Source: Verrucomicrobiota bacterium
Lineage (GTDB): Bacteria > Verrucomicrobiota > Verrucomicrobiia > Limisphaerales > JAHDYP01
Length of the DNA: 64,000 nucleotides
Direction: 5' to 3'
Assembly (NCBI GenBank): GCA_023383055.1
Contig: JAHDYP010000013.1
Location: forward strand, 1 to 64,000
In this document: positions 28,667 to 46,562 of the stretch, piece by piece
Position numbering within the stretch: the first letter of the stretch is position 1
Layout: every line of letters begins with the position of its first letter
The notes under the pieces: model-generated
The model's input: the letters and a program-made list of their open reading frames with translations, nothing else
The model's database searches: none
What the model was told of the DNA's origin: nothing
Made by a program: the position numbers and the translations under genes

Positions 28667-30234
28667 TTACGGCAGGCAGGCACAGCCCGGCAGGGCGAAT
28701 GTCGCCAGGCCGGCGTCGGCGAGGACATCACGCAGGTTGACGCGATCGCTGGCCAGGGCCGGGAAGGGATAACCGTCGCCACCGAGACCTGGGCTGGCGC
28801 TTTGGGCGTTGGCAAGGAAATCGAGGGTGACGATGCGGATCGAACGGGTGGGGTCGCCCACCACAACGCCGTTGGAGACGACAAGATCAGTAATGGCACC
28901 GAGGGCGTCCGCGATGCCGAGATGCCGGATGCGGGTGCCGGGAGTAACCACCACGCCATTGGTGTCGAACCGGATGGCGGTGCCGTTGGTGTCGAAGACG
29001 AACCAAAGTCCGGCGACCTGAGGGAACTGGCCGGGGGTCAGGGTTGGTCCGGTGGCGGCGACGCCATGTTCCATGATATCCTTGAGACCGGCGGCGGAGA
29101 CGGTGAGCAGGCTCAGGTTGTTGTTGAAGCGGAGGCTGTTTTCGACGTCGAGCTGAGAGATTTCGCCCTCGGCCTTGCCGGCGAGGGGATTGGCTACCGG
29201 TGGTCTCAGCTCGCCGGTGTAACCATCCACGAGCCCGATTTCGGCGCGGATGCCGCCGCCGTTTTTGATCGATGCAACCACCGTGGGATCGTGCAGCCGT
29301 GCCACCGCCAGGTTGGCGTCGGCGGTGAGGTTGCCGAGGGTGGTTTCCTCGGTGCGCACGAGGGCGCGCCGGCCTTCGATGAAGACCGAGGTTTGGCGCT
29401 GAGATACGGGAATTGGGCGCCAAGCCAGCGCACGGTGTTGGGGGTGGCTCCTCGGATATCAGGAAGGATGAGTTCACGGATAACCGCCGTGCCGCTGTCG
29501 AACTCGTGATTGCCCAGGCAGGAAGCGTCGAACCCGATGATGTTCATCAGGGAGAGATCGGCGCGACCGACGCCTTCGCGGATGTCCAGGCCGGGCAGAC
29601 CGAACAAGGATTCGTTGACGGTGTCGAGGGTTGAGCGTAGCGAGGCATCGCCGGCGGCGGAGAAGAAGGGGCCGGGGATGTAGCTGTCGCCGGCGTTGAG
29701 GATCAGGGTGTTGGTCTCCGCGGTGAGAAAGTAATCCACCATGGCGGCGAAGTTGGGCGCGTCGACAATGGCGTCCACGCCGCCTTCAAGATCGGATGAA
29801 TGAAGGAGCTGAAGCCGGATGTGGGCTGCGCTGGACTCCTGTTTTTCGAGCGTCAGTCCGGTGGCGCCAAACGCGGTGGTGAAATCGGAGGTTTGGGCCA
29901 GGGCATCCAGGAGCTCGGTGAAGCGGCCGCCGGTGTAATCGTAAGCCACGTTGCCGGGTTCGAGCAGCACATAGCGGGCGCGGAGTTCGAGGTCGCTGGT
30001 TTCGACCACGACGTAGCCCTGGGCGGCGGTGTTGAGATCCACCAGATCGGCTTCGGGCAATCGGCTGACGGCATCGCGAATCAAGAGATCGGTGTTGGCT
30101 ACGAGTTGGTCGAGACCGGGGATTCCCGCGAGGGCGGGATTGCTGGCCGCCTGTTCGGCGATGGCGGCGCGGAACGTTTCCGAGGAGACGGAAGGTCCGG
30201 TGAATTCGGGCACGATCCGTCCGTTCGGGGTCAA
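28667..30234 (-). pseudogene. 5'-nucleotidase/UshA-like metallophosphoesterase, disrupted by a frameshift; N-terminally joined to a PhoD C-terminal-like segment
   Basis: ORF 29206-30234 has LHSSDLEGG ... GNHEFD (calcineurin-like N-domain). ORF 28667-29359 has the 5'-nucleotidase C-domain (LGNLTADANLAVARL...) in a different frame, with a 154-bp overlap. The first ~140 aa (…AQGYVVVETSDLELRARYVLL) resemble the C-terminus of PhoD. Confidence 0.55.
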
Positions 30235-30368
30235 GTGCCGGGTGATGAAGGAACCGTGGATATCGCCCGAAATAATGGCGGCGTTGTGTGCGGCGAGCAG
30301 TTCGAGGACTTGTTGTTTGGCCTGGGGGAAACCGTCCCAGTGATCGGCGTTGAGCTGAAGGCGGAGCT

Positions 30369-31004
30369 TCAGTTCGTCCGGGAAACCAGGCGTTCGGGAT
30401 CGAGTTCGTTGGTCCTCCCGTCGCGATACGTGCCGTGAGCTCCATGGCGGTCGTTGGAGTACTCGTGGTCGTCCCAGATGACCAGCATCGGAAACAGCTC
30501 ATGCAGTCGCTGCAGGATCGGGTCGGTGCGATAAATCCGATAAAGCTCACGGTAATTGTCGAGGCTGGCGGCGGCCTGGAATCCGCCGAGGTCGATGGCG
30601 CCGGCGTCGTCTTGAAACGCGATCGAACGATCGCCACTGGTGGTTTGGAAGCCGGGATCACCGGTGGTTTCGTAAATGTAATCACCGAGATGCACGATGA
30701 AATCGAGGGAATCGGCCTCGTGCTCGACGAGGTGGGACAGCGTATTGTAGTAGCGCCCCACATAGTCCTGGCAATTCAGGAAAGCGAAGCGCACGGCCAC
30801 GGACTGATCAGGCGCGGGCGCGGTCTTGGTGCGGCCGACCGGCGAGAATTGTGTGTCCTGGTAAACGAAGCGATACCAGTAGTGGGTCGCCGGTTGCAGG
30901 CCGGCGGCGGCCACTTTGACACAGCCGTCGTGGGCCGCGCGGGCCACGAGATCCTCGCGGACGAGCACAACCGCGGAGAAGTCGGGATCACTGGCCAGTT
31001 CCAA
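30369..31004 (-). pseudogene. PhoD-like alkaline phosphatase fragment (N-terminal and first catalytic motifs only)
   Basis: Motifs YRFVY, FAFLNCQ, HLGDYIYE and VIWDDHEYSND are present. The ORF terminates ~25 aa after WDDHE, whereas full PhoD proteins continue for ~300 aa. The upstream N-terminus is also broken across frames. Confidence 0.5.
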
Positions 31005-33846: not shown

Positions 33847-34422
33847 ATGAAAGTCGAAGCTCTGGAAAAATCGGTCGCGTCCGCTCGCAAGCAAGCGCTG
33901 AACCTCAAGTGCAAAGCCGACATGTTGGCCCAGGTTGCCGTGGGCACCAAGGACCAGGCCCGACTCGCCAAACGCAAGCTCAAGGTGGCAAAGCGGCAAG
34001 CCAGGCAGGCCCGCAAGGTCGCCAAGGACGCCAAGCGAGCCTCGGCCGATGCCTCGCGAGCGTTCGAAAAGGCCAGTGCCGAGGTCGCCCGACTGGAAGC
34101 ACAACTCGAGAAAGCCCGCAAGACAGCAAGCAAGGAGCGCAAAGGCTCCGGTCAGCCCCAGCAACCCGCGGCTCGGAAAGGAGCGTCGAAGAAGCCCTCC
34201 GCCCCGGCCACTAAAGCCAAGGCCGTCAAGGCTGCCGGCAAACAGCTGTCGTCCAAGCCAAAGCATCAACCCAAACCGGCGCGGCCGGCGGTGGCCCCCC
34301 CGGTGAATGGCGCTTCGCCGGTGGCACGGGTTATCGCCACGCCGAGTCCAGTGGCCGGGAGGCAAGACACCTCGCTTCGTGGCACGCCGGGCGTTACGGC
34401 TCCAAGCGCGACCAACGAATAG
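33847..34422 (+). CDS. Lys/Ala-rich basic protein, histone-H1-like / coiled-coil (191 aa)
   Basis: MKVEALEKSVASARKQALNLKCKADMLAQ.... AKR/K repeats (KRKLKVAKRQARQARKVAKDAKRA) then an AKKP/ATKAKAVKAAGK tail. Preceded by a lower-GC promoter-like region. Confidence 0.5.
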   Translation: MKVEALEKSVASARKQALNLKCKADMLAQVAVGTKDQARLAKRKLKVAKRQARQARKVAKDAKRASADASRAFEKASAEVARLEAQLEKARKTASKERKGSGQPQQPAARKGASKKPSAPATKAKAVKAAGKQLSSKPKHQPKPARPAVAPPVNGASPVARVIATPSPVAGRQDTSLRGTPGVTAPSATNE

Positions 34423-35428
34423 ACTGCCGCTCACCGAAGAGGTTTACCGGGACGGGAATACTCACGCCGCGGGCACTGAACTCGCCGCTGATCCAAGCTC
34501 CCCACGACGGCAGATCGGTCGAAGCTTCGACCGTGTAACGACGGTGCGGCGCAATCTCGAGCCGCAAGTCCGCCTCAACGGCGAGATGATCGGAGAGCCG
34601 GTCCTCGGGTCGATCGGCGTCCATCGCCGGAGCCACGGAGGCCGTGCAGCTGACGTGGGACTGGCGCAGTCGCAGGAATACATAGTCCAGCGTTCGCGCG
34701 TCGGCCGCGTCCGACCGGCAGCCGTCGTAGGTGACGAAGTGCGGTTGGGATTCGGGCGGGTGTGCGTCCGTGCCCAACAGCCGCGTCAGTTGCCGGTATT
34801 CCTCGCTGTCGGGCGTGCAATTGAAGTCACCCGCGATAATATCCGCCCCCTGACCCTGCTCGGCCTGCCGCACCCAGGCGGCCAACTCGGCAATCTGGCG
34901 CAAGCGGATGTCGCGCGCGTCACCCGCTTGGAGATGCACATTCCAGACATTGAGCCGGAGCGAGCCGGCGAGTTCCACGGTAATCCGGAGTGCACCCTTG
35001 CCGACCAGGGAATCCGGCCAGGTGCCCGCGCGAAAGGCGTGGAACTCGGCGTCCACGATCGGATGGCGCGACAGCGTGACCAGTCCACTGCGGCGCAAGA
35101 AGAGGTTCCTGGCCGGACTGCTGGCCACCGACCATCCGGCTTCGGCGGGCACCGCCTCCCTGGCGTGCTCGGACCAGACCTCCTGCAGCAGGATGAATTC
35201 GGGAGCCCGCGCTTCGAGTTCCCGGGCAATCCTCGCATAGCGGCTGGGATTGGCGCCGTTGATCCAGGCGGGCAGACCCCAAATGTTGTAGGTCAGGACG
35301 CGCAGTTCGGTCTGTCCCTCCTGCCCCGGTCCGGACCGCGCGGCTGTCGCCGCATGACGGATTTGGACGTTACTCGAGTTGGGGGAGACGCAGCCCCAGA
35401 GGACCAACAAGAGGCCGGGGAGAAGCAT
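34394..35428 (-). CDS. Endonuclease/exonuclease/phosphatase (EEP) family lipoprotein
   Basis: Start MLLPGLLLVLWGC (lipobox-like LWGC; ATG ending 35428). LRVLTYNIWGLP, FILLQEV, GDFNCTP and SDHLAVEA are the EEP catalytic motifs. Confidence 0.8.
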   Translation of the reverse strand: MLLPGLLLVLWGCVSPNSSNVQIRHAATAARSGPGQEGQTELRVLTYNIWGLPAWINGANPSRYARIARELEARAPEFILLQEVWSEHAREAVPAEAGWSVASSPARNLFLRRSGLVTLSRHPIVDAEFHAFRAGTWPDSLVGKGALRITVELAGSLRLNVWNVHLQAGDARDIRLRQIAELAAWVRQAEQGQGADIIAGDFNCTPDSEEYRQLTRLLGTDAHPPESQPHFVTYDGCRSDAADARTLDYVFLRLRQSHVSCTASVAPAMDADRPEDRLSDHLAVEADLRLEIAPHRRYTVEASTDLPSWGAWISGEFSARGVSIPVPVNLFGERQSIRWSRLEP

Positions 35429-35637
35429 TAAAGGCCTCCTGGCGAGCCAGTGCGAACGCGGGTGAGAGGGAGAAGCGGGGGTGCGGGTGGGTAGCCCGTT
35501 CGTTTTTTGGCGGCCCATGGCGGTGAACGTCATGCGGGTGCACCCAGCGTAAGCGAAGCGCGACCGAACACCAGTGAGGGTCTGGTGAAGAGTGGGTGAC
35601 AGGCGGTTGACAACCGCGAGGCGGAACCGGCACGAAC

Positions 35638-35674
35638 TTGACACAATTGTCATCGACCTGACATCGGGATGTCA
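35638..35674. promoter_or_regulatory. Twin palindromic operators TGACA-caat-TGTCA and TGACA-tcggga-TGTCA upstream of the LysE-family gene
   Basis: Read directly: ttgacacaattgtcatcgacctgacatcgggatgtcacc. Half-sites recur every 9-12 bp, 42-78 bp upstream of GTG 35716. Confidence 0.4.
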
Positions 35675-35715
35675 CCTCGGTCTGCGAAGGCAGCCTGATG
35701 CGAGAGGATTTCGCG

Positions 35716-36335
35716 TGCTGACCTTTCAGGTGGTGTTGATCAAAGCCTTTCTGGCCGGCGGGGTGGCCGCTCTGCCGCTGGGGCCGATGGGGATTTGGTG
35801 CCTCCAGCGCACGGTGGGGCATGGTCGCCGCGCCGGCCTGCTTGCCGCGGCGGGAATCGCCGCCGCGCTGGGTCTGTGGGGTTGGGTGGTTGTCCACGGC
35901 CTGGAGTTTGTGTCCGGCTGGCTCGTGGCCGGGACACCCTGGGTGCGCTACGGCCTGGGGATTGCCCTGCTCACGGCCGGCGCCAGCGGGATTCGGCGCC
36001 CACCGCCTCGGACAGCGATTCCGTCCGCCTCCGCCTCGGATTGGGGAGGGTTCGCCATGACGTTCTGTGGCGTGGCGACCAACCCCGTCACTTTGGTCAC
36101 GCTCGCCGCGGTCTTTGGCGCGATCGGTCTGGTGCGCGTCGAGTTGGATGCGATGCGAGCCGTGGGGTTCGTGACGGCGATCGGACTGGGCGCGATGACG
36201 CTGTGGATCGGGCTCGCCGAATTGCTGCTGCGACTGCGCCAGCGCTGGGGTGACGTGGCAACCTCCCGCGTCAGCCGGGCGTTAAGTGGACTGCTGGTGC
36301 TCTTGGGAGCGAGCTACCTGCTGGCGGGTGGTTAG
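35716..36335 (+). CDS. LysE/RhtB-family amino-acid exporter-like membrane protein
   Basis: From GTG 35716: MLTFQVVLIKAFLAGGVAALPLGPMGIWCLQRTV.... ~206 aa with six hydrophobic segments, the typical LysE translocator N-terminus. Confidence 0.55.
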
Positions 36336-37423
36336 GCCGAGCGTGTGTCCGCCGGAAGATGTTGCCACAGGTCTCCCGTGTAGAACGCATTGGGCAATAC
36401 TTCACATTCGGCCCAGCAACCCGGGCACTTCCGCACCCAATCGCGCTGGGCGCCGATCGCGGCGCCGAACCACACTTCCCGGAAGGACTGTTGGCGCAGG
36501 TTGCCCACCTTGCGGGTGTTGAACTGGCATGTGGGCACGTCGCCGTTCGGAAGGATGCGCAGGTGCGCGTTAAGCGCCACGCAAGGGGGGTTGGGGGATC
36601 CGCGGCCAAGCAGGACCCGATCGCGAATGCCGCGGATATAATAGCGTTTGGCGAGTCGCTCCGGCCAGGGCCACGTCGCCACATCGCGTTCGACCTCATC
36701 CCACAAAGCGGCGATCTGCCCGTTTCGGAAGTCGCCGAAAGTGGCGAAGTCGCCGATGGCCTTGGGGGCCGCGTCCATCTCGGCTTTCAGGCTGTACGTG
36801 GCGCTGAGATCGTAGGCCAGCACCACGTGATGCCGAATGCCGAGCGGTCTGAGGAAGGCATTGAGCCGGCGGTAATCCGCCGCACCCTCGGCATCCACGA
36901 TCGTCTGGTTCACCGCCAGCTCCAGGCGAAGCTCGCGGCGACGCGGGGCCAACGCCTTCAGCGTGGCGGTGGCCGCGGCCCAGGCCGTGTCGCGTCCACG
37001 AACCTGGTTGTGCTTGGCCTCCATGCCGTCGAGGGAGATCAGGAGCTGCAGGGGAACCCGCGTCCGCCGCTGCTCGCAAAAGCGCGCGATGCGGTCGGTT
37101 AAAATCCCGTTGGTGGTCACATGCAACCGCAGGGGCCGAAGGTGATCCTGGGCCAGGTGCGCAATCTCGAGCAGAACCGGCCGCGCAAACGGTTCGCCTC
37201 CGCTCAAGCGCACGAAATCGAGGGCTGGCAATTGGCGGAAGATGCGTTCGATCTCCGCCAGCGTCAGCTCGTCGGGCGACGGCTTCTTCCAGCTGTCGCA
37301 CATCACGCAGCGCGCGTTGCATGTGAAACTGACGATATAGGTCAGATAACGCGGCATCCCGGCCTCGAACCGGCGCCGGGCCCGGGCGCCCGCCAGCGCG
37401 CCAAGTAATCGCAACGCCCTCAT
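36332..37423 (-). CDS. Radical SAM protein with C-terminal SPASM/twitch Cys cluster
   Basis: CNARCVMCDSW (CX3CX2C) near the N-terminus and a GGEPF glycine-rich SAM motif. C-terminal CVALNAHLRILPNGDVPTCQFNTRKVGN...CPGCWAECEV. Its start ATG overlaps the stop of the upstream glycosyltransferase (ATGA). Confidence 0.8.
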   Translation of the reverse strand: MRALRLLGALAGARARRRFEAGMPRYLTYIVSFTCNARCVMCDSWKKPSPDELTLAEIERIFRQLPALDFVRLSGGEPFARPVLLEIAHLAQDHLRPLRLHVTTNGILTDRIARFCEQRRTRVPLQLLISLDGMEAKHNQVRGRDTAWAAATATLKALAPRRRELRLELAVNQTIVDAEGAADYRRLNAFLRPLGIRHHVVLAYDLSATYSLKAEMDAAPKAIGDFATFGDFRNGQIAALWDEVERDVATWPWPERLAKRYYIRGIRDRVLLGRGSPNPPCVALNAHLRILPNGDVPTCQFNTRKVGNLRQQSFREVWFGAAIGAQRDWVRKCPGCWAECEVLPNAFYTGDLWQHLPADTRSA

Positions 37424-38535
37424 GCGATCGCGGGTTGCGGTTGCCGCGTGCCCGTCGGGATCCCGTCGGTCGCCAGCCCCAGATGCGGACGCAACGCGGC
37501 GAGCGCCGCCGGCAGTCCGTTCATACGCGCCGGCGGCACGTCCGACCGCAACTGTGGCGCACGTTCCAGAAACTGGCGGACGCGCTCGACGGTGAAATCG
37601 TGGGACGCCATCCAGGTGCCGGCCCGCATTTGGGCGAGGAAATGGGCGTTGACCAACTGTTCGTAGTTGCCCGGTTCCGGAATGGCCAGAACGGGCTTGC
37701 GCAGATAAATCGCCTCGCCCACCAACTGGTTGCCGGCGGTGCAGACGAGCGCCGCGCAGGAGGCCAGATCCGCAACGAAGCGCTCCTCGTCGGCGGCCTG
37801 GAACCGCAGTGGACCGCGGGATTCCTGTTGTCCAAGACCGTAAACGCGCACCTCACGCCGCAGTTGGGCGAGGGCGTCCAGGGCGCCGGGCGGCGCCTGG
37901 CGGCGCCAATAGACGACCACGTGGGATTGGCTCGAGGGTTCCGCCGCGAGCACCGCCGGGCGCAAGAGCACCCCCGTCTGAGTGACGTGCTTGCAACCCC
38001 TTCGCAACGGCGGGAAGTAAAACGAGGAAACGACCCGCGCCACGGCCGGACTATCGTAAGCGCGCACCACCAGGCCCATGTAAAGGGTGTGCAGCCGCAG
38101 CCAGCCGGGCAGCGACCGCAGATCATAGGTCAACAGGAAATGCTGATGGTCCAAACTGACATGCGGGATCCCTAGCTGCCGCGCCGCCCACGGCAGGGCG
38201 GGCTCGAAATCGCCGATCACCAGCTCGGGCTGTTCCACCGCCAGGCTTACGCGCAGCCGAGCCAGCAACGCGGGCAACCGATGAAGGTATCGCGCCGTCT
38301 CGCGGAGCGTCGCACCGAGACGCACGTTTCCTTCGGCGCCATAACCGAAGTGCAGCCCCGGTATTCGCCGGACTTGCACCTCCGTGCCGGCATACGCCCG
38401 CGCCAGGAAGTCATAGCCCTGACCGGAAGTGTGGATGACGACGGTGTGCCGTTCGCGCAGGCGCTCGGTCAAAGCCCGCACCCGTGTGGCGTGCCCCCGG
38501 CCATCGCCCGACAGGCTGATGAAGATCCTCGCCAT
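37420..38535 (-). CDS. GT-B glycosyltransferase (GT28/MGT/UDP-glucuronosyltransferase-like)
   Basis: Start MARIFISLSGDGRGHATRVRALTERL (ATG ending 38535), the G-rich GT-B N-terminal motif. C-terminal VCTAGNQLVGEAIYLRKPVLAIPEPGNYEQLVNAHFL is the nucleotide-sugar binding half. Confidence 0.75.
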   Translation of the reverse strand: MARIFISLSGDGRGHATRVRALTERLRERHTVVIHTSGQGYDFLARAYAGTEVQVRRIPGLHFGYGAEGNVRLGATLRETARYLHRLPALLARLRVSLAVEQPELVIGDFEPALPWAARQLGIPHVSLDHQHFLLTYDLRSLPGWLRLHTLYMGLVVRAYDSPAVARVVSSFYFPPLRRGCKHVTQTGVLLRPAVLAAEPSSQSHVVVYWRRQAPPGALDALAQLRREVRVYGLGQQESRGPLRFQAADEERFVADLASCAALVCTAGNQLVGEAIYLRKPVLAIPEPGNYEQLVNAHFLAQMRAGTWMASHDFTVERVRQFLERAPQLRSDVPPARMNGLPAALAALRPHLGLATDGIPTGTRQPQPAIA

Positions 38536-39129
38536 GACGTTCGCCTCGCTTATCACCGCGAGGGGAAGGGCACGGCAAGCGCAACCTCGCGTCGAAGCCG
38601 AATTGTTGCCGCGCTGTCACGGGGCCGACACTTGCGACGCCCGCGAGGTCTCAGCTCTCCACCGTCTCGTGAATGCGCAGGTCGCGACGCTCGAGCTCGG
38701 CAAAGACCGTCGTGGGATCGAAGGCCTCCTCCGGAGTCAGCACGCCGGCCAGCCGCACCGCCCCGTCGGCGAGCAATTGAGCGCCGATCAGGACGGTGCC
38801 GTCCGACGGGGGATGGGCGTGCACCAGGGTGTGCTGTCGGCGTTGCCCGTTGCGAAACCCGATCACCTCGACATGGAGGGCGTAACCGTACAGCTCGGTT
38901 TCGGTCCCTTCCCGGGGACACACGCGCGGTGGTGCGCGCGAAACACGGGATCCGAGGCTTCCTCCTCACCAAAGCCGTTGAGATTGATCCCATGACAGCC
39001 GGCGGCCGCGATGGCTGCGGTCGTAATGCCGTTCAACTTGATCGTGGTCCCGTCCATGAACTCGAAAACCGGACCGCATCCAGAGCGGCTTCGCGACAAA
39101 TGCGGCCGGCGCCGCCGAGACACAAGATC

Positions 39130-39460
39130 TTCATAAGGAGGGAGGGAGTTGGGCGGCGGCGCGACCGAGGCGTTCGGAAAATTGGTTCAAGGCGTTCTCG
39201 TCATGGGCCAGCGACAAATAGAGCTTGGTCCCCATCGGATGCCGATCCCCAGGCCATGGTCAAATCGAGATATTCCCGGCCATCGGTGTCCCACACCTGA
39301 CAACCCCGGCCGCGGGCCAGGACCGGAAGCAGCTCGGGAGGGAGCCCGAATTCGCCGTTCGAACCTCCGGGAAAGAGACGGAGGGCGCGGTCGCGCAACG
39401 AGGGAGCGGGCGGAGGTGGCCCGCTCAAGGGGCCGGCGGAAGGCGGATCTTGCGGTTGGT
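39130..39460 (-). pseudogene. Class-III aminotransferase (HemL-like) remnant, N-terminal ~110 codons with a frameshift
   Basis: LRLFPGGSNGEFGLPPELLPVLARGRGCQVWDTDGREYLDLTMAWGS matches the start of the PGGVNSPVR...DVDG.YIDY..SWG aminotransferase-III family. The frame breaks at ~39215 and the ORF ends at ~39130. The rest of the ~430-aa enzyme is missing. Confidence 0.45.
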
Positions 39461-39601
39461 TTGAAGATGTGACGGCGTTCACCCCGACGATTGATGCCGG
39501 TTCCAACCTCGGTTGGCAAGCCGCGGACGCTTCCGGGCAATCGGGATTGGTGTTGATCCCGGAACAGTCCAGGACGCACGTCCGCGGGGCTGCTGCCCGG
39601 G

Positions 39602-40177
39602 CTACACGTCCAACGCCATCGAGTCGGCAAGGATGGCTTGCTGGATCTGCTGCTCGGCGACGGCAGCGAGCCGATAGGTGCAGCGGTCGTCGTGGCCGCC
39701 CTCGGCGCGCGCGAACTCCGCCGAACCCCCACCCCCGCGGTCGAGGCGTCCAAAGCGGTGCCACCACGCTCGCCGCAGCAGGCTGGTCAGGCAGGAATGC
39801 AATAAAGCGCGGTGAACCCGGCGGAAGCGCCGGATGGCACTGCTCGTCACGAAGTGTTTCGCGCAGAGGTAACGAATGGTAATGTCCGTGGCCGTGGCCG
39901 ACTCGATTTCGTCGAACCCGTAACGCGCGGTGGCATAGCAATAGGTCAGCACCGTAAGCATCGTGGCGACCGGCGGGCCATTCTCACTCGGCGAAAGCGC
40001 CGGGCAATGGCCATCCAGGGCATCGGCCACCTCTTCCAGGACCCACCCGACCAGCGTGGGCTCGCTCACCCACTGCCGCAGATCGGCAGGCAGCGTGGCC
40101 AAAGTGGTGCGGGGCGGCAAGGCGGGTCCCGCGGCTGCCCGGTACCTCTGATTCATCAGCATGAGATTCGCATTCAT
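39602..40177 (-). mobile_element. DDE-transposase N-terminal-domain fragment (IS1182/IS5-like), truncated IS remnant
   Basis: LPADLRQWVSEPTLVGWVLEEVADAL and LTVLTYCYATARYGFDEIESATATDITIRYLCA...AIRRFRR resemble the conserved N-terminal region of IS1182/IS5-type transposases. The ORF is 191 aa and no DDE catalytic domain follows. Confidence 0.4.
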
Positions 40178-40314
40178 ATCCTATGATCATCATGACCCCA
40201 GCCATGTGGCGAACGTGTGACGGCCAGGTGAAGAGTGTGTTCCTTTGAGCGGGCGGTGTGAGTCAGGGAGCGCCGGGTCCCACCAGAGGCGTCGAAGCCG
40301 GGCCGGTCCTGCTC

Positions 40315-40331
40315 GTAACCCAATTGTAACA
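40315..40331 (+). promoter_or_regulatory. Pho-box-like site GTAACCCAATTGTAACA (copy 2), 66 bp upstream of the phosphate-porin gene; third inverted half-site GTTAC at 40348-40352
   Basis: 16/17 identical to the site at 25461-25477. Direct GTAAC(A/C) half-sites with 11-bp periodicity, as in PhoB/PhoP-type Pho boxes. Confidence 0.55.
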
Positions 40332-40396
40332 TGAAAGACACATGAACGTTACGCCCCGCGCTCAGCTTCAGGAGAAATCATGGACCTTGAATTGAC

Positions 40397-41761
40397 ATGA
40401 ATCTACCCCCTGCCACCCGTGCGACGCTCACGCTGCTTGCCGCCGCTGCCAGCCTCTCCTTGACCACCGGCAGTCAGGCCCAATCCGCCGATGCCCTAAT
40501 CGACAAGCTGCTCGATAAAGGGATTCTCACGCTGGACGAAGCCAACGAACTCCGGGAAGAGACGGACAAGAACTTCACCACGGCATACCAGGTCAAGAGC
40601 GGCATGCCGGAATGGGTGACTTCCTTGAAGATCAACGGCGATTTCCGCGGGCGTTTCGAGGGTTTTTACTCGGACAACCCCGCATTCGTGGATCGCAACC
40701 GGTTTCGCTACCGCCTGCGCCTCGGAGTTACCGCCGTGATGAAAGACCAGCTTGAAGTCGGTCTGCGTCTCGGCTCGGGAGATCTCGAAGGCATCCGCGA
40801 CCTGCGGACCGGCACCGACCCGATTTCCAGCAATCAGTCCTTGCAGAACAACGCCTCCAAGAAGGGAGTGTTTATTGATCTCGCCTACGCCAAATGGGCG
40901 CCGCTCAACACCCCCGATTGGTCCGGCAGCCTTACCATTGGCAAAATGGAGAACCCTTTTGTCTTTTCCGACGGCGTCTTCGATCGGGATTACACGCCCG
41001 AAGGCGCCGCCCTGGGCCTCACCCACGCAATCAATGAACAACACGCGCTGGTCCTGATCGCCGGCGGCTATGTCCTCGATGAAATCAGCGCCGACAGCGA
41101 CGATCCCCATCTGGCTGGCGCGCAACTCCGCTGGAATGCCGCGTGGTCGCCCAAGCTTGCCACCACGGCCGGCGTGGCCGGCCTGGTCATCGGCGGGAAG
41201 GAAAACCTCAAGAACTCCGATGTCCCCAACATCAACGCCGGCAATACCCGCACGCCGCTGCCGGAGGGCGCCCTCGCTTACCACTACAACCCCATCGTGG
41301 CCGACGCCGCCGTCACCTATACCTTGCCCCATTTTCCCTTCCACAATGCTCCGTTCCCCATCCAGCTGAGCGGCGATTACATCTACAACCCGGGCGCGCC
41401 CGACCGCAACCGGGCCTACTCGGTCGGCATCTCCTTCGGCAAATCCGGCAAGCGCGGGCTCTGGGATCTTTCCTATCGCTACAAGTATCTGGAGGGCGAC
41501 GCCTGGTATGAGGAATTCGTCGATTCGGATTTCGGCGCTTACTACGCCGCGGCCGCCGAAGGGATGGGATTCAGCGGTTATGGCGCCGGCACCAACACCA
41601 AAGGTCACGTGGCCAAGGCCGCTTACAGCCCGCACGACGCGGTGACACTGACGCTCACCGCCATCATCACCGAGCTCATCGATCTCCCCACGGTGGCGGT
41701 CGGCACGGATCCGGACAGCCAAATGATCCGGATCCAGGCCGATGCCGCCTTCAAATTCTGA
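40397..41761 (+). CDS. Outer-membrane porin, phosphate-selective porin O/P-like
   Basis: Signal peptide MNLPPATRATLTLLAAAASLSLTTGSQAQS. Alternating beta-strand pattern and a C-terminal ...AAFKF. Position immediately upstream of pstSCAB-phoU. Confidence 0.65.
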   Translation: MNLPPATRATLTLLAAAASLSLTTGSQAQSADALIDKLLDKGILTLDEANELREETDKNFTTAYQVKSGMPEWVTSLKINGDFRGRFEGFYSDNPAFVDRNRFRYRLRLGVTAVMKDQLEVGLRLGSGDLEGIRDLRTGTDPISSNQSLQNNASKKGVFIDLAYAKWAPLNTPDWSGSLTIGKMENPFVFSDGVFDRDYTPEGAALGLTHAINEQHALVLIAGGYVLDEISADSDDPHLAGAQLRWNAAWSPKLATTAGVAGLVIGGKENLKNSDVPNINAGNTRTPLPEGALAYHYNPIVADAAVTYTLPHFPFHNAPFPIQLSGDYIYNPGAPDRNRAYSVGISFGKSGKRGLWDLSYRYKYLEGDAWYEEFVDSDFGAYYAAAAEGMGFSGYGAGTNTKGHVAKAAYSPHDAVTLTLTAIITELIDLPTVAVGTDPDSQMIRIQADAAFKF

Positions 41762-41805
41762 CCCGAGCCAACCCGGGCCCGCGATTCACTCAAACGGAAC
41801 CCGGC

Positions 41806-41822
41806 GGTAACCTGAATGTAAC
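41806..41822 (+). promoter_or_regulatory. Pho-box-like site GTAACCTGAATGTAACA (copy 3), 32 bp upstream of pstS
   Basis: Same GTAACC-N5-TGTAACA architecture as copies 1 and 2. Confidence 0.55.
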
Positions 41823-41853
41823 AGTCAACCCGTTCACTCAAGACAGACACATT

Positions 41854-42705
41854 ATGAAAGCCAAGAACCTGATCACCCGAATCGGCCTGTGCCTCGGCAC
41901 CGCCGCCCTGCTGCTGCCCGCGCGCGCGGACATCACCGTCAAAGGCTCGGATACCATGGTCATCCTCGCCCAGAAATGGGCCGAAGTTTACATGGCCAAT
42001 AACCCCAGCATCAAAATCCAGGTCACCGGCGGCGGTACCGGCACCGGCTTCGCCGCCCTCCAGAACCAGCAGACGGACCTCTGCAACGCCTCCCGGAAAA
42101 TCCGGGCGAAAGAAATCGAAACCTGCATCCGGGCCTTCGGCAAACGCCCGACGGAATACCGGGTGGCTCTGGACGGCCTGTCGGTCTACGTCAACGCAGA
42201 GAACCCGGTCAGCGAACTGACCGTGGAGCAGCTCGAGTTGATCTTCACCGCGAAGATCCGGAACTGGAAAGAGCTCGGCGGACCGGACCTGCCGATCACC
42301 GTTTACAGCCGTGAGAACAGCTCCGGCACCTATGAGTTCTTCAAGGAACACGTGCTGCAGGGCAAAGACTTCGCCGCGAGCGCGCAAACCATGCCCGGAA
42401 CCGCCGCCGTGCTCCAGGCCGTGGCCAAGGACCCCAAGGGGATTGGCTATGGCGGTGCCGCCTACGGCGCGGGCGCCAAGCATCTCAACATCAAGAAGGA
42501 CGAGGCTTCCCCGGCCTTTGAACCCACCGAGGAAAACGTCGTGAACGGCGCTTATCCGATCTCCCGTCACCTCTTCATCTACGTGAATCCCGCGCTCGAC
42601 AAAGGCGACGTCGCCAACTATCTGAAGTGGATTCGCAGCGATGAAGGCCAGGCCGTTGTCAAAGATGTCGGGTATTTCCCCCTGCCGGCAAACCTCCGGC
42701 GTTGA
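41854..42705 (+). CDS. pstS: Phosphate ABC transporter substrate-binding protein PstS
   Basis: Signal peptide. ITVKGSDTMVILAQKWAEVYMANNPSIKIQVTGGGTGTGFAAL (PBP-like SGT/GGG motifs). TVYSRENSSGTYEFF. Confidence 0.9.
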   Translation: MKAKNLITRIGLCLGTAALLLPARADITVKGSDTMVILAQKWAEVYMANNPSIKIQVTGGGTGTGFAALQNQQTDLCNASRKIRAKEIETCIRAFGKRPTEYRVALDGLSVYVNAENPVSELTVEQLELIFTAKIRNWKELGGPDLPITVYSRENSSGTYEFFKEHVLQGKDFAASAQTMPGTAAVLQAVAKDPKGIGYGGAAYGAGAKHLNIKKDEASPAFEPTEENVVNGAYPISRHLFIYVNPALDKGDVANYLKWIRSDEGQAVVKDVGYFPLPANLRR

Positions 42706-42725
42706 TTTCAGACGCCCCGCCGGCG

Positions 42726-42765
42726 CCCCGGCCGCAAGGCTCATCCCGGCCGGGGCCCGCGCGGG
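42726..42765 (+). terminator. Intercistronic GC hairpins between pstS and pstC (CCCCGGCCG-N11-CGGCCGGGG, then palindrome CCCGCGCGGG); candidate attenuator
   Basis: Read directly at 42726-42755 and 42756-42765, 21 bp after the pstS stop. Confidence 0.45.
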
Positions 42766-42833
42766 CGTTCGAAGTCTCTTGGCCTGCGGCGTGATCCGCC
42801 TCGCGATGTTTTAGACATACGCCGTAATCAACC

Positions 42834-44024
42834 ATGCCATCCTCAGTTCCAACCCCCAGCAAGCGGACGGCAGGATGGATGGGGATCCAGCGCGGACACC
42901 GCGCCCGTCCGCTCGAGTGGCTGGCCGAGCGCGTGATCTTCACGATCTCGCTCTCGGCCATCATGCTGATCCTCCTGATTTTCATCTTTGTGGGGCGCGA
43001 GGCGTTGCCGATCTTCCTGGGCCGAATGGACAGCGCCCTGATCCAGGAGACCATTCCGCCCGAGCGGATGAACGAGCTCGATCCGGAGGAACTGCGGGTG
43101 TATCTTGATCTCAGCCCCCGGCAGTTCGCCGGGATGGATCGTGATACCCTGCAGATGCTCATGGAAGTCAGGCAGGAAGCTCTCGAGGAGATTCCACCGG
43201 AGCAGCTCAACGACCCGGACGCCCATGCCAACACCACGGCCTGGCGCTACCTGCTGTTCCCTCACCAATGGTCGGATTACGACCGCCCCCGCTACATCTG
43301 GCAGCCGATCGGTAACATCCATAAATACAACATCGTCCCCCTCATCGTCGGCAGCCTCAAAACCACCCTGATCGGCCTGTTCTTCGCCGTTCCCATCTCG
43401 GTTGGCGCCGCCATTTATGTCTCCCAGCTTGCCCGCCCTCGCGTGCGCGAGATTGCCAAACCGACGATCGAACTGCTCTCAGGGATTCCTTCCGTGGTGG
43501 TGGGCTTCTTTGCGCTACTGGTGATGGCCTCCGTGTTTCAGGCGGTGTTCCAATACGAAACCCGGCTCAACGCGTTCGTCGCCGGCATCGCCCTCGGATT
43601 CGCCGTGATCCCGGTAGTCTTCTCGATCGCCGAAGACGCCCTGACCAGTGTCCCCCGCAGCTACACCCAGGGCGCACTGGCGCTCGGCTCCTCGAAATGG
43701 CAGGCGGCCTGGCATATCGTCCTCCCCGCGGCATTGCCCGGGGTGTTCGCCGCGGTGGTGCTCGGCTTTGGCCGGGCCATTGGCGAAACCATGATCGTGC
43801 TGATGGTCTGTTCGGCCAGTGTCATGTCCTGGAGCATCTTCGACTCCGCCCGCAGCATCACCACCACCATTGCCGCGGAAATGGCGGAAGCCGTCGCGGG
43901 CGGGCATCACTATCGCATGCTGTTCATGCTTGGCGCCGTGCTGTTCGCGGTCACCTTCGTGGCGAACCTCGTCGGAGACATCGTCATCCACCGGCTCAAG
44001 CGCAAACTCGAAGGGCGATCGTGA
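42834..44024 (+). CDS. pstC: Phosphate ABC transporter permease PstC (with ~90-aa periplasmic loop insertion)
   Basis: PstC signature ([60 protein letters not shown]; EAA-like loop). An extra segment [73 protein letters not shown] follows TM1. Confidence 0.9.
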
Positions 44025-44986
44025 ACCGTCCGCCGAATCCCGCTCCCCCCGATTCCGCGAAGAGCTTTCGCTCGGAACGCTTCGATTTCGCGTCGTTCTT
44101 CTTCACGGGACTCACCGGCTTCGCCACCCTGCTCATCGTCGCGATCCTCGCGGTGATTCTCCTGAACATCGTGGTGCAAGGATGGGAGAGTCTCTCCTGG
44201 CGTTTTATCTCCACCATACCCAAGGACAATTTCTTCGACCCCGCGTCCACGGGCGTCCTGCCCATGATCGTCGGCACCACCGGGCGTGTCTTCGTCATGA
44301 CAATCTTCGTCCTGCCTGTCGGCGTCATCACCGCCATCTACCTTACCGAATACGCCCCCAGCACCTCGCCGCTCACCCGTTTCATCCGGGCCGCGGTCAA
44401 CAACCTCGCCGGTGTGCCTTCGATCGTGTTCGGTCTGTTCGGTCTCGGCTTTTTCATCAACTTCGTCGGACGCAACCTGGATGCGCTGCTGGATTCGCCC
44501 GGGCCCACCTGGGGGCAACCCGCGATTCTCTGGGCTTCGCTGACCCTCGCCGTGATGACCCTGCCGGTGGTCATCGTTGCCACGGAAGAATCGTTGCGGG
44601 CCATCCCGCCGGGACTGCGCGAGGCCAGCCTGGCCCTCGGCGCCACCAAACTGCAAACGATCCTGCGCGTCGTGCTGCCCCAGGCGCTGCCGGGCATCAT
44701 GACCGGCGGCATTCTGGCCGTGAGCCGGGCTGCCGGCGAAGTCGCCCCGATTCTCTTCACCGGGGTCGCGTATTACATGGCGAACCTGCCTTCGAAGCTC
44801 ACGGACCAATTCATGGACCTTGGCTACCACGTTTACGTGCTCTCGACCCAGTCGCCCAACATCGAACAAACCCGGCCCATCCTGTATGCCACCGTCCTCG
44901 TCCTGCTCATGTTGACCTTTGCCCTGAATTTCACCGCCATCCTGATCCGCGCCCGCATGCGGAAGAAACTGCGCGCCCTGGGCTAG
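44021..44986 (+). CDS. pstA: Phosphate ABC transporter permease PstA
   Basis: GTG 44021 overlaps the pstC TGA (cGTGAac). PstA motifs [45 protein letters not shown]. Ends with TAG at 44984-44986. Confidence 0.85.
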
Positions 44987-45003
44987 CTCAGAACCTTGAA
45001 TCC

Positions 45004-45822
45004 ATGCCTGCTGCACCTCTGAAGAATGTGACGGTTTCGGCCCCCGACGGTCCCGACGACTCCGCGAAGGAGACCCTGATCGAGGTCCGCGATCTTTCGC
45101 TTTATTACGGCGCCACCCGGGCCCTGACGCAGATCACCCTGCCGATCTGCCCCCGTCTGGTCACCGCGTTCATCGGCCCGTCGGGTTGCGGCAAGTCCAC
45201 GCTGCTGCGCTGTTTCAACCGGATGAACGATTTGATCGACAATGTCCGGATCGAAGGGGCGGTCCGGATCAGCGGGTACGATATCTACAGCCGGGACGTC
45301 GATGTCATCGAACTCCGCAAACGGGTCGGCATGGTCTTCCAGAAATCCAATCCCTTCCCCAAATCCGTCTACGAGAATATCGCCTACGGCCTGCGGCTCC
45401 AGGGCCATCGCAACCGCGCCGACCTCGATCAGATTGTCGAACAGAGCCTCCGCAGCGCCGCCCTCTGGGATGAAGTCAAGGACCGGCTCCATTCCAGCGC
45501 GCTGGGACTCTCGGGGGGCCAGCAGCAACGCCTCTGCATCGCCCGGGCCATCGCCATCAAACCCGAGATCATCCTCATGGACGAGCCGGCCTCCGCGCTG
45601 GATCCCATCGCCACCGCCCGGATCGAGGACCTGATCCTCGATCTCAAAAAGCAATTCACCATCGTCATCGTCACCCACAACATGCAACAGGCCGCCCGGA
45701 TCTCGGACTACACGGCTTTCTTTTACTTGGGCCAGCTGGTCGAGCACGATCGGACCCGGAAGATTTTCACCAACCCAACCCAGAAGCAGACCGAGGATTA
45801 CGTGACCGGCCGCTTTGGTTAA
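45004..45822 (+). CDS. pstB: Phosphate ABC transporter ATP-binding protein PstB
   Basis: Walker [10 protein letters not shown], signature [16 protein letters not shown], Walker [13 protein letters not shown]-loop VIVTHNM. Confidence 0.95.
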
Positions 45823-45833
45823 ATTCCCTGATT

Positions 45834-46562
45834 ATGCAGCACCTGGAATCCGAACTTCACCAGCTCAAACAGCGGCTCCTGACGATGGCGGGCACCGCCG
45901 AACAGGCCGTCAACCAGGCCGTCAAAGCCCTCGTCGACCGCGATGACGACCTCGCCCGCGGCGTGCGCGAACGGGATTCGGTCCTCGATCAGCTCGAAAT
46001 GGAGCTGGACGATTCCGCCATCCAGCTCCTCTCCAAAGCCCCGCTGGCCACCGATCTGCGGCTGATCACGGTGGTCATGAAGATCTCCCGGGACCTCGAG
46101 CGCATCGGCGACGAAGCCACCACCATCGCCCGGCGCACCATTGAGCTCGGCCAGGAACCCCAGCTCAAACCCTACGTCGATATCCCCAGAATGGCCGGCA
46201 TCGGCCTCGAAATGCTCAGGGACGCGCTCGATGCCTTCGTCACCCGCGACACCGAGAAAGCCCGCGCCGTTGTCCTCCGGGACAAGGAAGTCGACCAGAT
46301 CAACAAACAACTCCACCGCGAGCTCTCCAGCTTCATGGTCGAACGCCCCAGCACCATCACCCGGTGCCTGAATCTCATGGTCATCTCGAAGAGCCTCGAG
46401 CGCATCGCCGACCACGCCGCCAACATCGCCGAGGATGCCGTCTACCTCCACGAAGCCCGCGATATCCGCCACTCCGGCCTGCCCCGAAATCAATCCAGCT
46501 CACCATCCCCGGACTTGACCGGAGCGCCGGGGCGGATCCCCGCTACCGGTCAGACTCCGTGA
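45834..46562 (+). CDS. phoU: Phosphate-transport system regulator PhoU
   Basis: Two PhoU repeats: DLRLITVVMKISRDLERIGDEATTIARR and ITRCLNLMVISKSLERIADHAANIAEDAVY. Confidence 0.9.
   Translation: MQHLESELHQLKQRLLTMAGTAEQAVNQAVKALVDRDDDLARGVRERDSVLDQLEMELDDSAIQLLSKAPLATDLRLITVVMKISRDLERIGDEATTIARRTIELGQEPQLKPYVDIPRMAGIGLEMLRDALDAFVTRDTEKARAVVLRDKEVDQINKQLHRELSSFMVERPSTITRCLNLMVISKSLERIADHAANIAEDAVYLHEARDIRHSGLPRNQSSSPSPDLTGAPGRIPATGQTP

Follow-up and report, generated by a model that had tools for sequence, protein, structure and literature searches.

Where phosphate is scarce, be it in oceans, lakes, soils or infections, the exchange of phospholipids for glycolipids is a major bacterial adaptation, and the surrogate glycolipids leave lipid biomarkers that are used by geochemists. 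The PlcP–Agt route to such lipids is known mainly from Proteobacteria and Flavobacteria. Its genes are described in the order plcP, then the glycolipid synthase gene agt (PMC4796936, PMC8528852). The PA3219–PA3218 pair of P. aeruginosa is laid out in this way. In other systems a lipid is glycosylated and a radical SAM enzyme then reworks the sugar, as in HpnI→HpnK→HpnJ, which leads from bacteriohopanetetrol glucosamine to the cyclitol ether, and in the step from glucosyl-GDGT by Cds; for this calditol route a phosphatase acting before the glucosyltransferase has been postulated (PMC13459092). Glycosylation also precedes the radical SAM step in blasticidin S biosynthesis, where BlsD acts before BlsE (PMC3715490).

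Our analysis concerns a glycosyltransferase (GT) and a radical SAM enzyme (rSAM) encoded in a 64-kb stretch of verrucomicrobial DNA, which as a whole we call the window. As the original prediction had it, positions 36332-38535 correspond exactly to two minus-strand open reading frames, with the GT stop overlapping the rSAM start. The pair and its principal motifs are as follows:

37420..38535, minus strand: GT-B glycosyltransferase, 371 aa, matching PF13528 (Glyco_trans_1_3), of an MJ1255/VC2487-like clade with a GT1/GT28-like fold
38482..38508, minus strand: Gly-rich loop SGDGRGHATR, residues 10-18 of the GT, from invariant columns among 54 homologues
37420..37423, minus strand: ATGA, overlap of GT stop and rSAM start (translational coupling), from sequence reading
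36332..37423, minus strand: radical SAM enzyme of 363 aa; its SPASM/twitch domain, at the C-terminus, is shortened, and an N-terminal RRE is lacking
37298..37321, minus strand: CX3CX2C motif C35-N-A-R-C39-V-M-C42 of the rSAM, from the translation; C35, C39 and C42 do not vary among 52 homologues
36404..36583, minus strand: auxiliary-cluster region of the rSAM, C281-X12-G294-X4-C299...C333-X2-C336-X3-C340, from invariant columns

The GT frame runs from the ATG at 38535 to the stop at 37420, and the rSAM frame from the ATG at 37423 to the TAA at 36332. We place the GT start at ATG 38535 and not at GTG 38556 because all homologues open with MA(K/R)IF. On the plus strand, positions 37420-37423 read TCAT, i.e. 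ATGA on the coding strand, and the two genes share these 4 nt; a start giving the same overlap is available at about 40 of 75 homologous loci, or about half. Pfam upholds both predicted domain assignments, the GT matching Glyco_trans_1_3 at E=1.5e-58 and the rSAM matching Radical_SAM at 1.1e-14 and SPASM at 9.8e-8.

The GT shows the features of a GT-B enzyme of GT1/GT28-like fold, namely two Rossmann-like domains, a Gly-rich loop with a catalytic-type His, and a C-terminal nucleotide-sugar motif. Its N-terminal loop carries the putative catalytic His15 together with Arg13 and Arg18, which are invariant in 54 homologues, and by analogy with GT1 enzymes H15 and D109 would form a catalytic His-Asp dyad. 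The protein aligns over the full length of both the TIGR00661 (MJ1255/VC2487 family) and the Glyco_trans_1_3 profiles, but at 115.9 bits it falls below the curated TIGR00661 cut-off of 195.9, and on this sequence evidence we regard it as a separate clade related to the MJ1255/VC2487 family. Our literature searches found no characterised member of the MJ1255/VC2487 (TIGR00661)/PF13528 family, and a sequence search of the PDB returned no match to the GT. In a plasmid collection we noticed a 27%-identical GT homologue in Fibrella, in an uninformative gene context; the same collection held no rSAM homologue.

The CX3CX2C motif, which in this superfamily binds the [4Fe-4S] cluster that cleaves SAM and lies in a partial TIM-barrel core, places the rSAM in the Radical SAM superfamily (PF04055). 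The full SPASM motif is CX9-15GX4C–gap–CX2CX5CX3C–gap–C, and it binds two auxiliary [4Fe-4S] clusters. The SPASM profile (PF13186) is covered end to end in our enzyme (positions 1-67) and scores 32.6 bits over a cut-off of 21.5, but the auxiliary region, CX17C...CX2CX3C, has five Cys against seven in the full motif and no Cys after C340. The SPASM domain of the earlier description is therefore incomplete, and its residues suggest a twitch-like or a reduced SPASM domain. In its CX3CX2C core, its C-terminal Cys-rich auxiliary-cluster domain and its overall fold the rSAM resembles the SPASM/twitch subfamily (anSME, BtrN, MoaA, SkfB, AhbD/NirJ), from which it differs in the incomplete seven-Cys signature and in reaching only 10-20% of the cut-offs of the curated models. 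One further cysteine, C116, recurs in at least 90% of the 52 homologues compared.

Membership in described families was considered and rejected in several cases. The heme-type SPASM enzymes (AhbC/AhbD/NirJ) score 45-55 bits against cut-offs of 500-650, with no heme genes nearby. A prokaryotic viperin or other defence role was dismissed, since PADLOC reports no system for the pair, only a weak pVip core match to the rSAM (E=3.9e-9, 34 bits) and no match to the GT. The RiPP maturases (MftC, PqqE, SkfB, sactisynthases) do not fit either, as the Cys motif starts as early as residue 35, an RRE is lacking, and MftC scores 54.5 bits against 265. One could nevertheless suppose that the pair matures a peptide or protein, either as a RiPP or by glycosylating and crosslinking a protein target, given that the nearest structural neighbour of the rSAM is SkfB, a peptide maturase. 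We give this almost no credence: all curated maturase models lie far under cut-off, the genomic partners are glycosyltransferases and phosphoesterases, and across 76 loci the only conserved small open reading frames are shadow frames that lie within the genes for GT, rSAM and PlcP, so that the predicted absence of a precursor peptide stands. No NCBIfam model matches the GT, the rSAM or its distant relatives above cut-off; a sequence search of the PDB gives rSAM-core matches only and no close relative; an exact-sequence look-up of the window's rSAM returned no identical entry on record; and literature searches found no paper on either protein or on a radical SAM enzyme together with PlcP. The pair thus fits no named pathway, as had been supposed from its sequence.

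The two genes are nonetheless strongly tied to each other. The GT lies directly upstream of the rSAM on the same strand in 76 of 80 species-level reference genomes, and the same adjacency is found at 42 of 48 evaluable metagenome loci. The pairing spans at least ten phyla, with carriers in Verrucomicrobiota, Planctomycetota, Poribacteria, Sumerlaeota, Eremiobacterota, Acidobacteriota, Myxococcota, Gemmatimonadota, Chloroflexota and Moduliflexus, and at one locus (L035) a single 745-aa open reading frame joins an N-terminal GT to a C-terminal rSAM. No other neighbour is conserved across phyla as a third partner. The pairing is far beyond chance, and GT and rSAM are one conserved functional unit.

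What surrounds this unit in the window is summarized here:

29206..31004, minus strand: PhoD-like alkaline phosphatase (Pfam PhoD_N and PhoD; NCBIfam PhoD 2.4e-32)
34394..35653, minus strand: EEP-family (neutral-sphingomyelinase-like) phosphodiesterase (Exo_endo_phos 3.6e-22), with lipoprotein signal LWGC
35592..36335, plus strand: LysE-like membrane protein, convergent with the pair (Pfam LysE 24.6 bits, just under cut-off), syntenic in the relative L001
40397..41761, plus strand: porin (Porin_5, Pfam 3.1e-31), head of the pst cluster and divergent from the GT
41854..45822, plus strand: pstS (41854-42705), pstC (42834-44024), pstA (~44021-44986) and pstB (~45004-45822), a high-affinity phosphate ABC transporter by Pfam (PBP_like_2 1.3e-44, BPD_transp_1, ABC_tran)
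45834..46562, plus strand: phoU, phosphate-uptake regulator (Pfam PhoU 3.1e-45)

The pair had been called an isolated unit with convergent or unrelated flanks. The convergent neighbour is there, the LysE-like gene overlapping the rSAM 3' end by 4 nt. The flanks are not unrelated, however, because phosphate-starvation genes lie on both sides: porin-pstSCAB-phoU (40397-46562) begins 1.9 kb away and PhoD (~29206-31004) lies at 5 kb. According to a three-frame reading, the PhoD-like gene is apparently frameshifted, a second frame leading on into a region that resembles 5'-nucleotidase. The EEP phosphodiesterase also has a weak match to the TIGR03395 sphingomyelin phosphodiesterase model, and its homologues occur near the pair at L001, L002, L051 and L117, with weaker ones at L010, L011 and L027. 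The pst adjacency is not kept in the closest relatives (L001, L002, L051), there is no recognisable Pho box upstream of the GT nor any motif common with the porin and pstS promoters, and the 64-kb window contains no PlcP homologue.

In other lineages the connection to phosphate is closer. A PlcP-type metallophosphoesterase lies directly upstream of the GT at 14 of the 17 evaluable Planctomycetota loci, and one is encoded beside the GT at 16 of 80 genome loci overall. Compared with the experimentally validated enzymes PA3219 and SMc00171, the planctomycetal proteins reach 32-55% identity (E 1e-36 to 1e-92), but only 22-30% when compared with E. coli LpxH, and we rejected the LpxH identity on this ground. 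Another 16 metagenome loci have an adjoining PlcP or PlcP-like gene, one of them in the order GT-rSAM-PlcP, and at two loci (L126 and L133) pstS-C-A-B, a PlcP-like gene, GT and rSAM all lie on one strand. In Poribacteria, phosphonate oxygenases of PhnY-like (359 bits) and PhnZ-like (261 bits) type flank the pair, as does a 584-aa metallophosphoesterase, which comparison with PlcP excluded as a homologue. None of the sampled Verrucomicrobiota, Sumerlaeota and Eremiobacterota loci, this window included, shows PlcP adjacency. The pair is thus linked, in three lineages, to PlcP and to genes of the Pho regulon or of phosphonate use, and the earlier view of a pair without context does not hold.

These arrangements invite comparison with the PlcP–Agt operon of S. 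meliloti (SMc00171), P. aeruginosa (PA3219–PA3218), SAR11 and Phaeobacter. There too a PlcP homologue lies on the same strand directly upstream of a glycosyltransferase, so that in Planctomycetota our GT takes the place of Agt; phosphate-starvation genes are associated with both; and by analogy the expected product would likewise be a phosphorus-free glycosyl-diacylglycerol. The differences lie in the enzymes. Our GT is a PF13528 protein of inverting, GT1/GT28-like type, whereas Agt1 belongs to GT4, and BLASTP against PA3218 Agt1 gives E=0.36, i.e. no detectable similarity, so the GT could be a non-homologous replacement for Agt. Moreover, a radical SAM enzyme has been added and is the more conserved partner, while PlcP does not adjoin the pair in many lineages.

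How could a glycosyltransferase and a radical SAM enzyme together serve a cell that is short of phosphate? Our best reading of the gene neighbourhood is that they form a self-contained, widespread cassette for a modified glycolipid tied to phosphate scarcity. More specifically, the GT would add a sugar to diacylglycerol, or else to a different membrane lipid, after which the rSAM would tailor this sugar head group, an assignment to which we give slightly less than an even chance. In the proposed scheme a phospholipase C would first act on membrane phospholipids, stripping off their phosphate head group so that diacylglycerol remains. At loci with an adjoining plcP gene this enzyme would be PlcP; in the window's genome it would presumably be encoded elsewhere. 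The GT is taken from its fold, conserved residues and operon position to be an inverting GT1/GT28-like enzyme, in which His15 and Asp109 would form the dyad, the C-domain (E274, E292-Q293) would bind the UDP-sugar and the N-domain is very basic. Working at the cytoplasmic face, it would then take a hexose from a UDP-sugar and attach it to a free hydroxyl, either that of diacylglycerol or that of some other membrane lipid. Finally, the rSAM would cleave SAM at its CX3CX2C cluster and abstract a hydrogen from the sugar head group, and with one twitch-like auxiliary cluster, and possibly Cys116 as hydrogen donor, would turn the sugar into another head group. The product might be an epimer or, as has been proposed for HpnJ and Cds, a cyclitol ether formed by ring contraction; a sugar that has been oxidised or decarboxylated, as by BtrN and BlsE, is a further candidate. 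The original prediction, in which a lipid, a cofactor or a cell-envelope glycan is the target, pointed in the right direction.

The order of the two reactions deserves separate consideration. HpnJ is a radical SAM enzyme with a B12-binding domain and HpnI is a GT2 enzyme; the HpnJ model is absent from the NCBIfam matches of our rSAM, and no hopanoid genes lie near the pair. The likeness of HpnI–HpnK–HpnJ and Cds to our pair is thus one of pathway logic only, the same order of glycosylating and then reworking being proposed here. Alternatively the rSAM, like DesII, could turn a common nucleotide sugar into an unusual one which the GT then transfers. The closest folds include enzymes of DesII and BlsE type, whose substrates are nucleotide or nucleoside sugars, and a common soluble sugar donor would easily explain why rSAM relatives pair with unrelated GT folds (GT-B PF13528, GT2 and GT4). 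We still think this sequence of events distinctly unlikely, on three grounds of which none is decisive: the GT comes first both in gene order and in the fusion, where it forms the N-terminal part; the nearest precedents glycosylate first, by HpnI→HpnK→HpnJ, glucosyl-GDGT→Cds and BlsD→BlsE (PMC13459092, PMC3715490); and a YdjC deacetylase beside an rSAM relative mirrors HpnK, which acts on a lipid-bound sugar. The relative in question is 34% identical to our rSAM and lies in a YdjC–rSAM–GT2 operon with an LPG_synthase_TM gene, matching the HpnK/J/I/L domain set. By analogy, and with the reservation that gene order cannot fix reaction order, we favour glycosylation first and radical tailoring of the sugar thereafter; the C-C or C-S bond formation before glycosylation that had been suggested is without support, as gene order, the fusion and the same precedents favour the reverse.

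A lipid could also enter as a carrier. The GT might, as MurG does, act on an acceptor of polyprenyl-(di)phosphate-linked or lipid A/LPS type, the rSAM modifying the lipid-linked sugar before it enters an envelope polymer; the rSAM relatives that lie beside GT2, GT-C and flippase-like genes do point to polyprenyl-phosphate-linked sugars and not to diacylglycerol. However, flippase, GT-C and other polysaccharide genes are never found in the core cassette (80+61 loci), the recurrent partners are PlcP and phosphate-acquisition genes instead of envelope-polymer genes, and in the window LpxK and GT9 genes lie 8-11 kb off, beyond the pst operon. An envelope or carrier-lipid role thus appears unlikely to us.

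The acceptor might not be a lipid at all. The pair could make a soluble small molecule, such as a cofactor, a compatible solute or a nucleoside-type metabolite like that of BlsD and BlsE (cytosylglucuronate synthase and radical SAM decarboxylase), unrelated to membranes. Indeed BlsE is the second-best match to the rSAM by both fold and profile, the GT1-fold neighbours of the GT are mostly small-molecule glycosyltransferases, and structure models show no transmembrane segments in either protein. Yet BlsE is only 17% identical to our rSAM and sits in a multi-gene antibiotic cluster of actinomycetes, whereas the pair stands alone across phyla, and a natural-product pair would not normally be retained in ten phyla, at 57-80% identity, unless further tailoring genes came with it. 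Moreover, the linkage to PlcP argues for a lipid acceptor of the GT. The fold neighbours of the GT include enzymes with lipophilic or lipid acceptors (sterol GT, MurG and MGDG synthase), and its basic N-domain fits membrane association, the median pI being 9.7 for the GT family and 10.1 for the N-domain, although GC-rich genomes may account for part of these high values. On this balance a soluble product seems very improbable.

If the membrane-lipid reading is correct, it can be carried one step further, to an undescribed phosphorus-free lipid class in which a diacylglycerol-bound sugar is remodelled in place by the rSAM and which replaces phospholipids when phosphate is scarce. The head group might be a carbocyclic, glycosidase- and acid-resistant cyclitol ether, for example, or a rare epimer, and its users would include Planctomycetes, Verrucomicrobia, Poribacteria, Sumerlaeota, Eremiobacterota and others. 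We regard this extension as doubtful, but if true it would bring radical SAM chemistry for the first time into the renovation of glycerolipid head groups in bacteria, and would imply a head group not yet seen in lipidomes, made by a different GT family together with the radical step. It would also extend the theme of surrogate lipids to phyla that are abundant in the environment but have been little cultured, namely the PVC group, Eremiobacterota, Sumerlaeota and the sponge-associated Poribacteria. The pair is also present in a cultured organism, Schlesneria paludicola, which makes a direct test feasible.

The same reading, if true, would give a first functional context to the orphan SPASM/twitch clade around the rSAM, which comprises 405 representative clusters at E<1e-30 and most of whose sampled members adjoin glycosyltransferases. 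A clade at 47-48% identity to our rSAM has no adjoining GT at all; an apparent fusion there (L156) was rejected, the upstream in-frame stretch being low-complexity non-coding sequence. Among relatives at 23–45% identity, four of the five sampled adjoin glycosyltransferases.

Our analysis places a glycosyltransferase (GT) and a radical SAM enzyme (rSAM) in one coupled unit, with the following genes.

37420-38535, minus strand: GT gene, ATG 38535 to stop 37420, 371 aa
36332-37423, minus strand: rSAM gene, ATG 37423 to TAA 36332, 363 aa

The GT has an alternative in-frame GTG at 38556; since every homologue begins with MA(K/R)IF, we take ATG 38535 as the start. The plus-strand TCAT at 37420-37423 is ATGA on the coding strand, which gives a 4-nt overlap between the stop codon of the GT and the start codon of the rSAM, just as the original prediction had read. 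The GT matches Pfam Glyco_trans_1_3 (PF13528, E=1.5e-58) and the rSAM matches Radical_SAM (1.1e-14) and SPASM (9.8e-8). The window has a G+C content of 61-68%, and a protein of a Verrucomicrobia MAG matches its rSAM at 100% identity.

When one genome per GTDB species was scanned with a pattern, rSAM relatives turned up in at least 430 species; the best 80 of these (rSAM 57-77% identical) form our locus set.

Loci per group among the 80, grouped by record title
Planctomycetota: 20
Verrucomicrobiota: 18
Poribacteria: 14
Sumerlaeota: 8
Eremiobacterota: 5
Myxococcota: 3
Acidobacteriota: 2
Moduliflexus: 2
Gemmatimonadota: 1
Chloroflexota: 1
'proteobacterium': 1
Unclassified: 5

By tblastn the GT is present in 76/80 loci, directly upstream of the rSAM and on the same strand in 75 of the 80 and downstream of it in one (L002); contig ends cut two of the four loci that lack it. 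In an independent metagenome scan the GT adjoins the rSAM in 42 of 48 evaluable loci. The 4-nt overlapping start is available in about 40 of the 75 loci, the remainder having mostly gaps below 50 nt, and in an unclassified MAG (L035:4831-7077) a single 745-aa ORF carries the GT at its N-terminus and the rSAM at its C-terminus, which may be either a true fusion or a sequencing frameshift. All-against-all clustering of the ORFs of the 80 loci gave no cross-phylum neighbour besides these two genes. The pair is therefore a conserved module rather than a chance neighbourhood, within which the rSAM is more conserved than the GT (57-81% versus 40-75% identity).

What could such a module act on? The AlphaFold model of the rSAM is confident (pLDDT 92.9), and at least 90% of homologues share C116. 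The C-terminal cysteines, C281-X12-G-X4-C299 and C333-X2-C336-X3-C340, are invariant and leave the seven-Cys SPASM signature incomplete. All scores on curated NCBIfam models fall far under the cut-offs (best 55 bits versus 500), in line with the original view that no pathway could be named. Membership tests failed for RiPP maturases, for heme SPASM enzymes and for viperin, where PADLOC pVip gave a weak core match. With the motif C35-X3-C39-X2-C42 just 35 residues in from the N-terminus, there is no space for an RRE, the peptide-recognition domain of peptide-maturing radical SAM enzymes. Moreover, within 1.5 kb of the pair the ORFs of 20-89 aa cluster only as shadow frames of GT, rSAM or PlcP genes, so that the earlier statement that no precursor-like ORF lies nearby holds, and peptide maturation is hardly credible.

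The GT is modelled as a GT-B enzyme of the GT1/GT28 type (pLDDT 92.5). Its invariant residues (loop G10-x-G12-R13-G14-H15-x-x-R18; D109; E274; E292-Q293-x-x-N296) fit an inverting GT1-type mechanism, with residue roles taken by analogy. Family members are basic (median pI 9.7 overall, 10.1 in the N-domain), as peripheral membrane GT-B enzymes likewise are. On TIGR00661 (MJ1255/VC2487) the GT scores 115.9 bits against a cut-off of 195.9, and the literature searched describes a function for no member of that family.

The wider rSAM family is large: when 1.84 billion representatives were searched with a profile, 405 clusters matched at E<1e-30. Ten distant members all score below every NCBIfam cut-off.

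Gene neighbourhoods of distant rSAM relatives, with identity to the window rSAM
P0248, 45%: rSAM–GT2
P0261, 38%: GT2–rSAM–methyltransferase–GATase
P0257, 35%: GT2 and MBOAT genes nearby
P0396, 34%: LPG_synthase_TM–PMT_2 (GT-C)–YdjC–rSAM–GT2, genes overlapping
P0296, 30%: DegT, epimerase, sulfotransferase, GT2, LPG_synthase_TM, two rSAMs, PMT_2, flippase
P0351, 23%: polysaccharide cluster with four GT4, FemAB, Phosphodiest/PglZ, PS_pyruv_trans

Another relative, P0365, is a 2163-aa GT2–GT2–GT4–rSAM fusion whose rSAM-SPASM domain is 26% identical to the query. A glycosyltransferase is thus the common denominator of the clade, which points to a sugar or glycoconjugate as rSAM substrate. The exception is a clade at 47-48% identity (L144, L147, L148, L153, L156) without an adjacent GT, its neighbours being DAO oxidoreductase, QRPTase, lipoate ligase and flagellin. 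A carrier-lipid or envelope-glycan route for the pair is, in our view, rather unlikely.

In the same family, L086:2357-8102 (also L087 and L088) holds a tight operon, LPG_synthase_TM–PMT_2–YdjC–rSAM–GT2, with an rSAM 34% identical; the domains parallel those of hopanoid HpnL/HpnK/HpnJ/HpnI, except that the rSAM is of the SPASM type and a GT-C is added. L094:3868-9927 has two tandem rSAM-SPASM genes with GT2, DUF2304, LPG_synthase_TM, PMT_2, sulfotransferase and DegT aminotransferase.

A metallophosphoesterase adjoins the GT in 16/80 loci, including 14 of the 17 Planctomycetota loci that could be evaluated. Thirteen loci have it immediately upstream of the GT in the same orientation, at spacings of −92 to +290 nt. 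NCBIfam gives it a sub-threshold LpxH match and nothing else. By tblastn, relatives of it came up in P. aeruginosa and S. meliloti within a plasmid collection that also contains some mis-filed chromosomal sequence. The S. meliloti relative adjoins sinR and sinI, presumably the position of SMc00171. The P. aeruginosa relative is followed by a GT gene and then a convergent adenylate cyclase, matching the published PA3219 (plcP)–PA3218 (agt1)–cyaB layout (PMC8528852). The cassette-adjacent enzymes share 32-55% identity (E 1e-36 to 1e-92) with these two relatives, both validated PlcP phospholipases C, as against 22-30% with E. coli LpxH, and we reject an LpxH reading. Under phosphate stress PlcP makes diacylglycerol from phospholipids, and the glycolipid synthase gene agt comes next after plcP in more than 25% of analysed isolates (PMC4796936). 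In the cassette loci the PF13528 GT takes agt's position; Agt1 and the cassette GT are not homologous (E=0.36), and this GT is not an Agt. PlcP or PlcP-like genes occur in 16 further loci of the metagenome set, where L136 has the order GT–rSAM–PlcP; none was found within the 64-kb window. At L035 a PlcP homologue lies 290 nt upstream of the GT-rSAM ORF.

Given these enzyme classes, the coupling, conservation and fusion of the genes and their PlcP, Pho and Phn neighbourhoods, we tentatively favour, at slightly under an even chance, a route from diacylglycerol release through GT glycosylation to rSAM tailoring of the lipid-bound sugar. PlcP, or an equivalent phospholipase elsewhere in the window's genome, would release diacylglycerol, the GT would glycosylate it from a UDP-sugar donor, and the rSAM would take a hydrogen from the lipid-bound sugar and convert it. 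The cassette would then work like a PlcP-Agt operon with an added tailoring step of the HpnJ or Cds kind, although the rSAM falls in no curated family. HpnI/HpnK/HpnJ and calditol synthase are precedents for adding a sugar first and tailoring the head group by radical chemistry afterwards (review PMC13459092). For a soluble glycoside the precedent is BlsD/BlsE (PMC3715490), and a soluble product of the pair strikes us as improbable. A donor-first route, with the rSAM acting ahead of the GT, is unlikely. The original prediction had proposed a lipid, cofactor or envelope glycan as target, and this class stands, while its C-C or C-S bond formation and the order of bond formation before glycosylation are unsupported. 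Candidate chemistries for tailoring a lipid-bound sugar are epimerisation, with C116 as possible hydrogen donor, ring contraction to a cyclitol ether, and oxidation or decarboxylation, among which our data do not discriminate. No paper in the literature searched names both PlcP and a radical SAM enzyme. The cassette is widespread, highly conserved and uncharacterised, and it is directly testable in Schlesneria paludicola.

Once the PlcP idea had arisen we looked for Pho-regulon genes in the window, and they are present, a context that the original prediction had missed together with the PlcP genes beside relatives.

40397-41761, divergent from GT: porin
41854-42705, divergent from GT: pstS
42834-44024, divergent from GT: pstC
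~44021-44986, divergent from GT: pstA
~45004-45822, divergent from GT: pstB
45834-46562, divergent from GT: phoU
~29206-31004, minus strand: PhoD-like alkaline phosphatase, split over two reading frames
34394-35653, minus strand: EEP-family, neutral-sphingomyelinase-like phosphodiesterase with lipoprotein signal …LLVLWGC

The divergent porin–pst–phoU cluster lies 1.9 kb upstream of the GT. The PhoD-like gene, either a pseudogene or an assembly frameshift, runs on into a segment that resembles 5'-nucleotidases and carries the motif GNHEFD. Related Verrucomicrobia (L001, L002, L051, L117) retain EEP-family homologues in the vicinity of the pair, and some Poribacteria (L010, L011, L027) have weaker ones there. 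In L126 (1-11068) and L133, of a different lineage with 50% G+C and genes typical of Planctomycetes, one strand carries pstS–pstC–pstA–pstB–DUF1559–small ORF–PlcP-like–GT–rSAM; pst adjacency is absent from the window's closest relatives. In Poribacteria a 584-aa metallophosphoesterase flanks the pair, and a gene pair upstream of GT–rSAM scores 359 bits on methylphosphonate hydroxylase (PhnY) and 261 bits on hydroxymethylphosphonate dioxygenase (PhnZ), both slightly below the model cut-offs. Within phyla, these PlcP, Pho and Phn associations may partly be inherited synteny. No promoter motif common to the GT upstream region and the pst promoters was found.

Several smaller observations concern the same neighbourhoods. 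PstC and PstA of L126/L133 are unusually long (846 and 727 aa), and in the Poribacteria locus L082:9100-13732 the pair is immediately followed by four more PhyH-family dioxygenase genes and a Pec_lyase gene. The upstream regions of the porin (40178-40396) and pstS (41762-41853) both carry GTAAC(A/C)TGAA and TGTAACA words, perhaps a lineage-specific Pho box; these words are not seen upstream of the GT. In the kilobase preceding the GT (38650-39600, minus strand) there is nothing but decayed gene pieces: an aminotransferase class-III N-terminus at ~39201-39470 and saccharopine-dehydrogenase-like N- and C-terminal fragments with a stop near 38654. Between this region and the porin/pst cluster, a 191-aa ORF (39602-40177, minus strand) with a weak match to the transposase domain DUF772 may be a mobile-element remnant.
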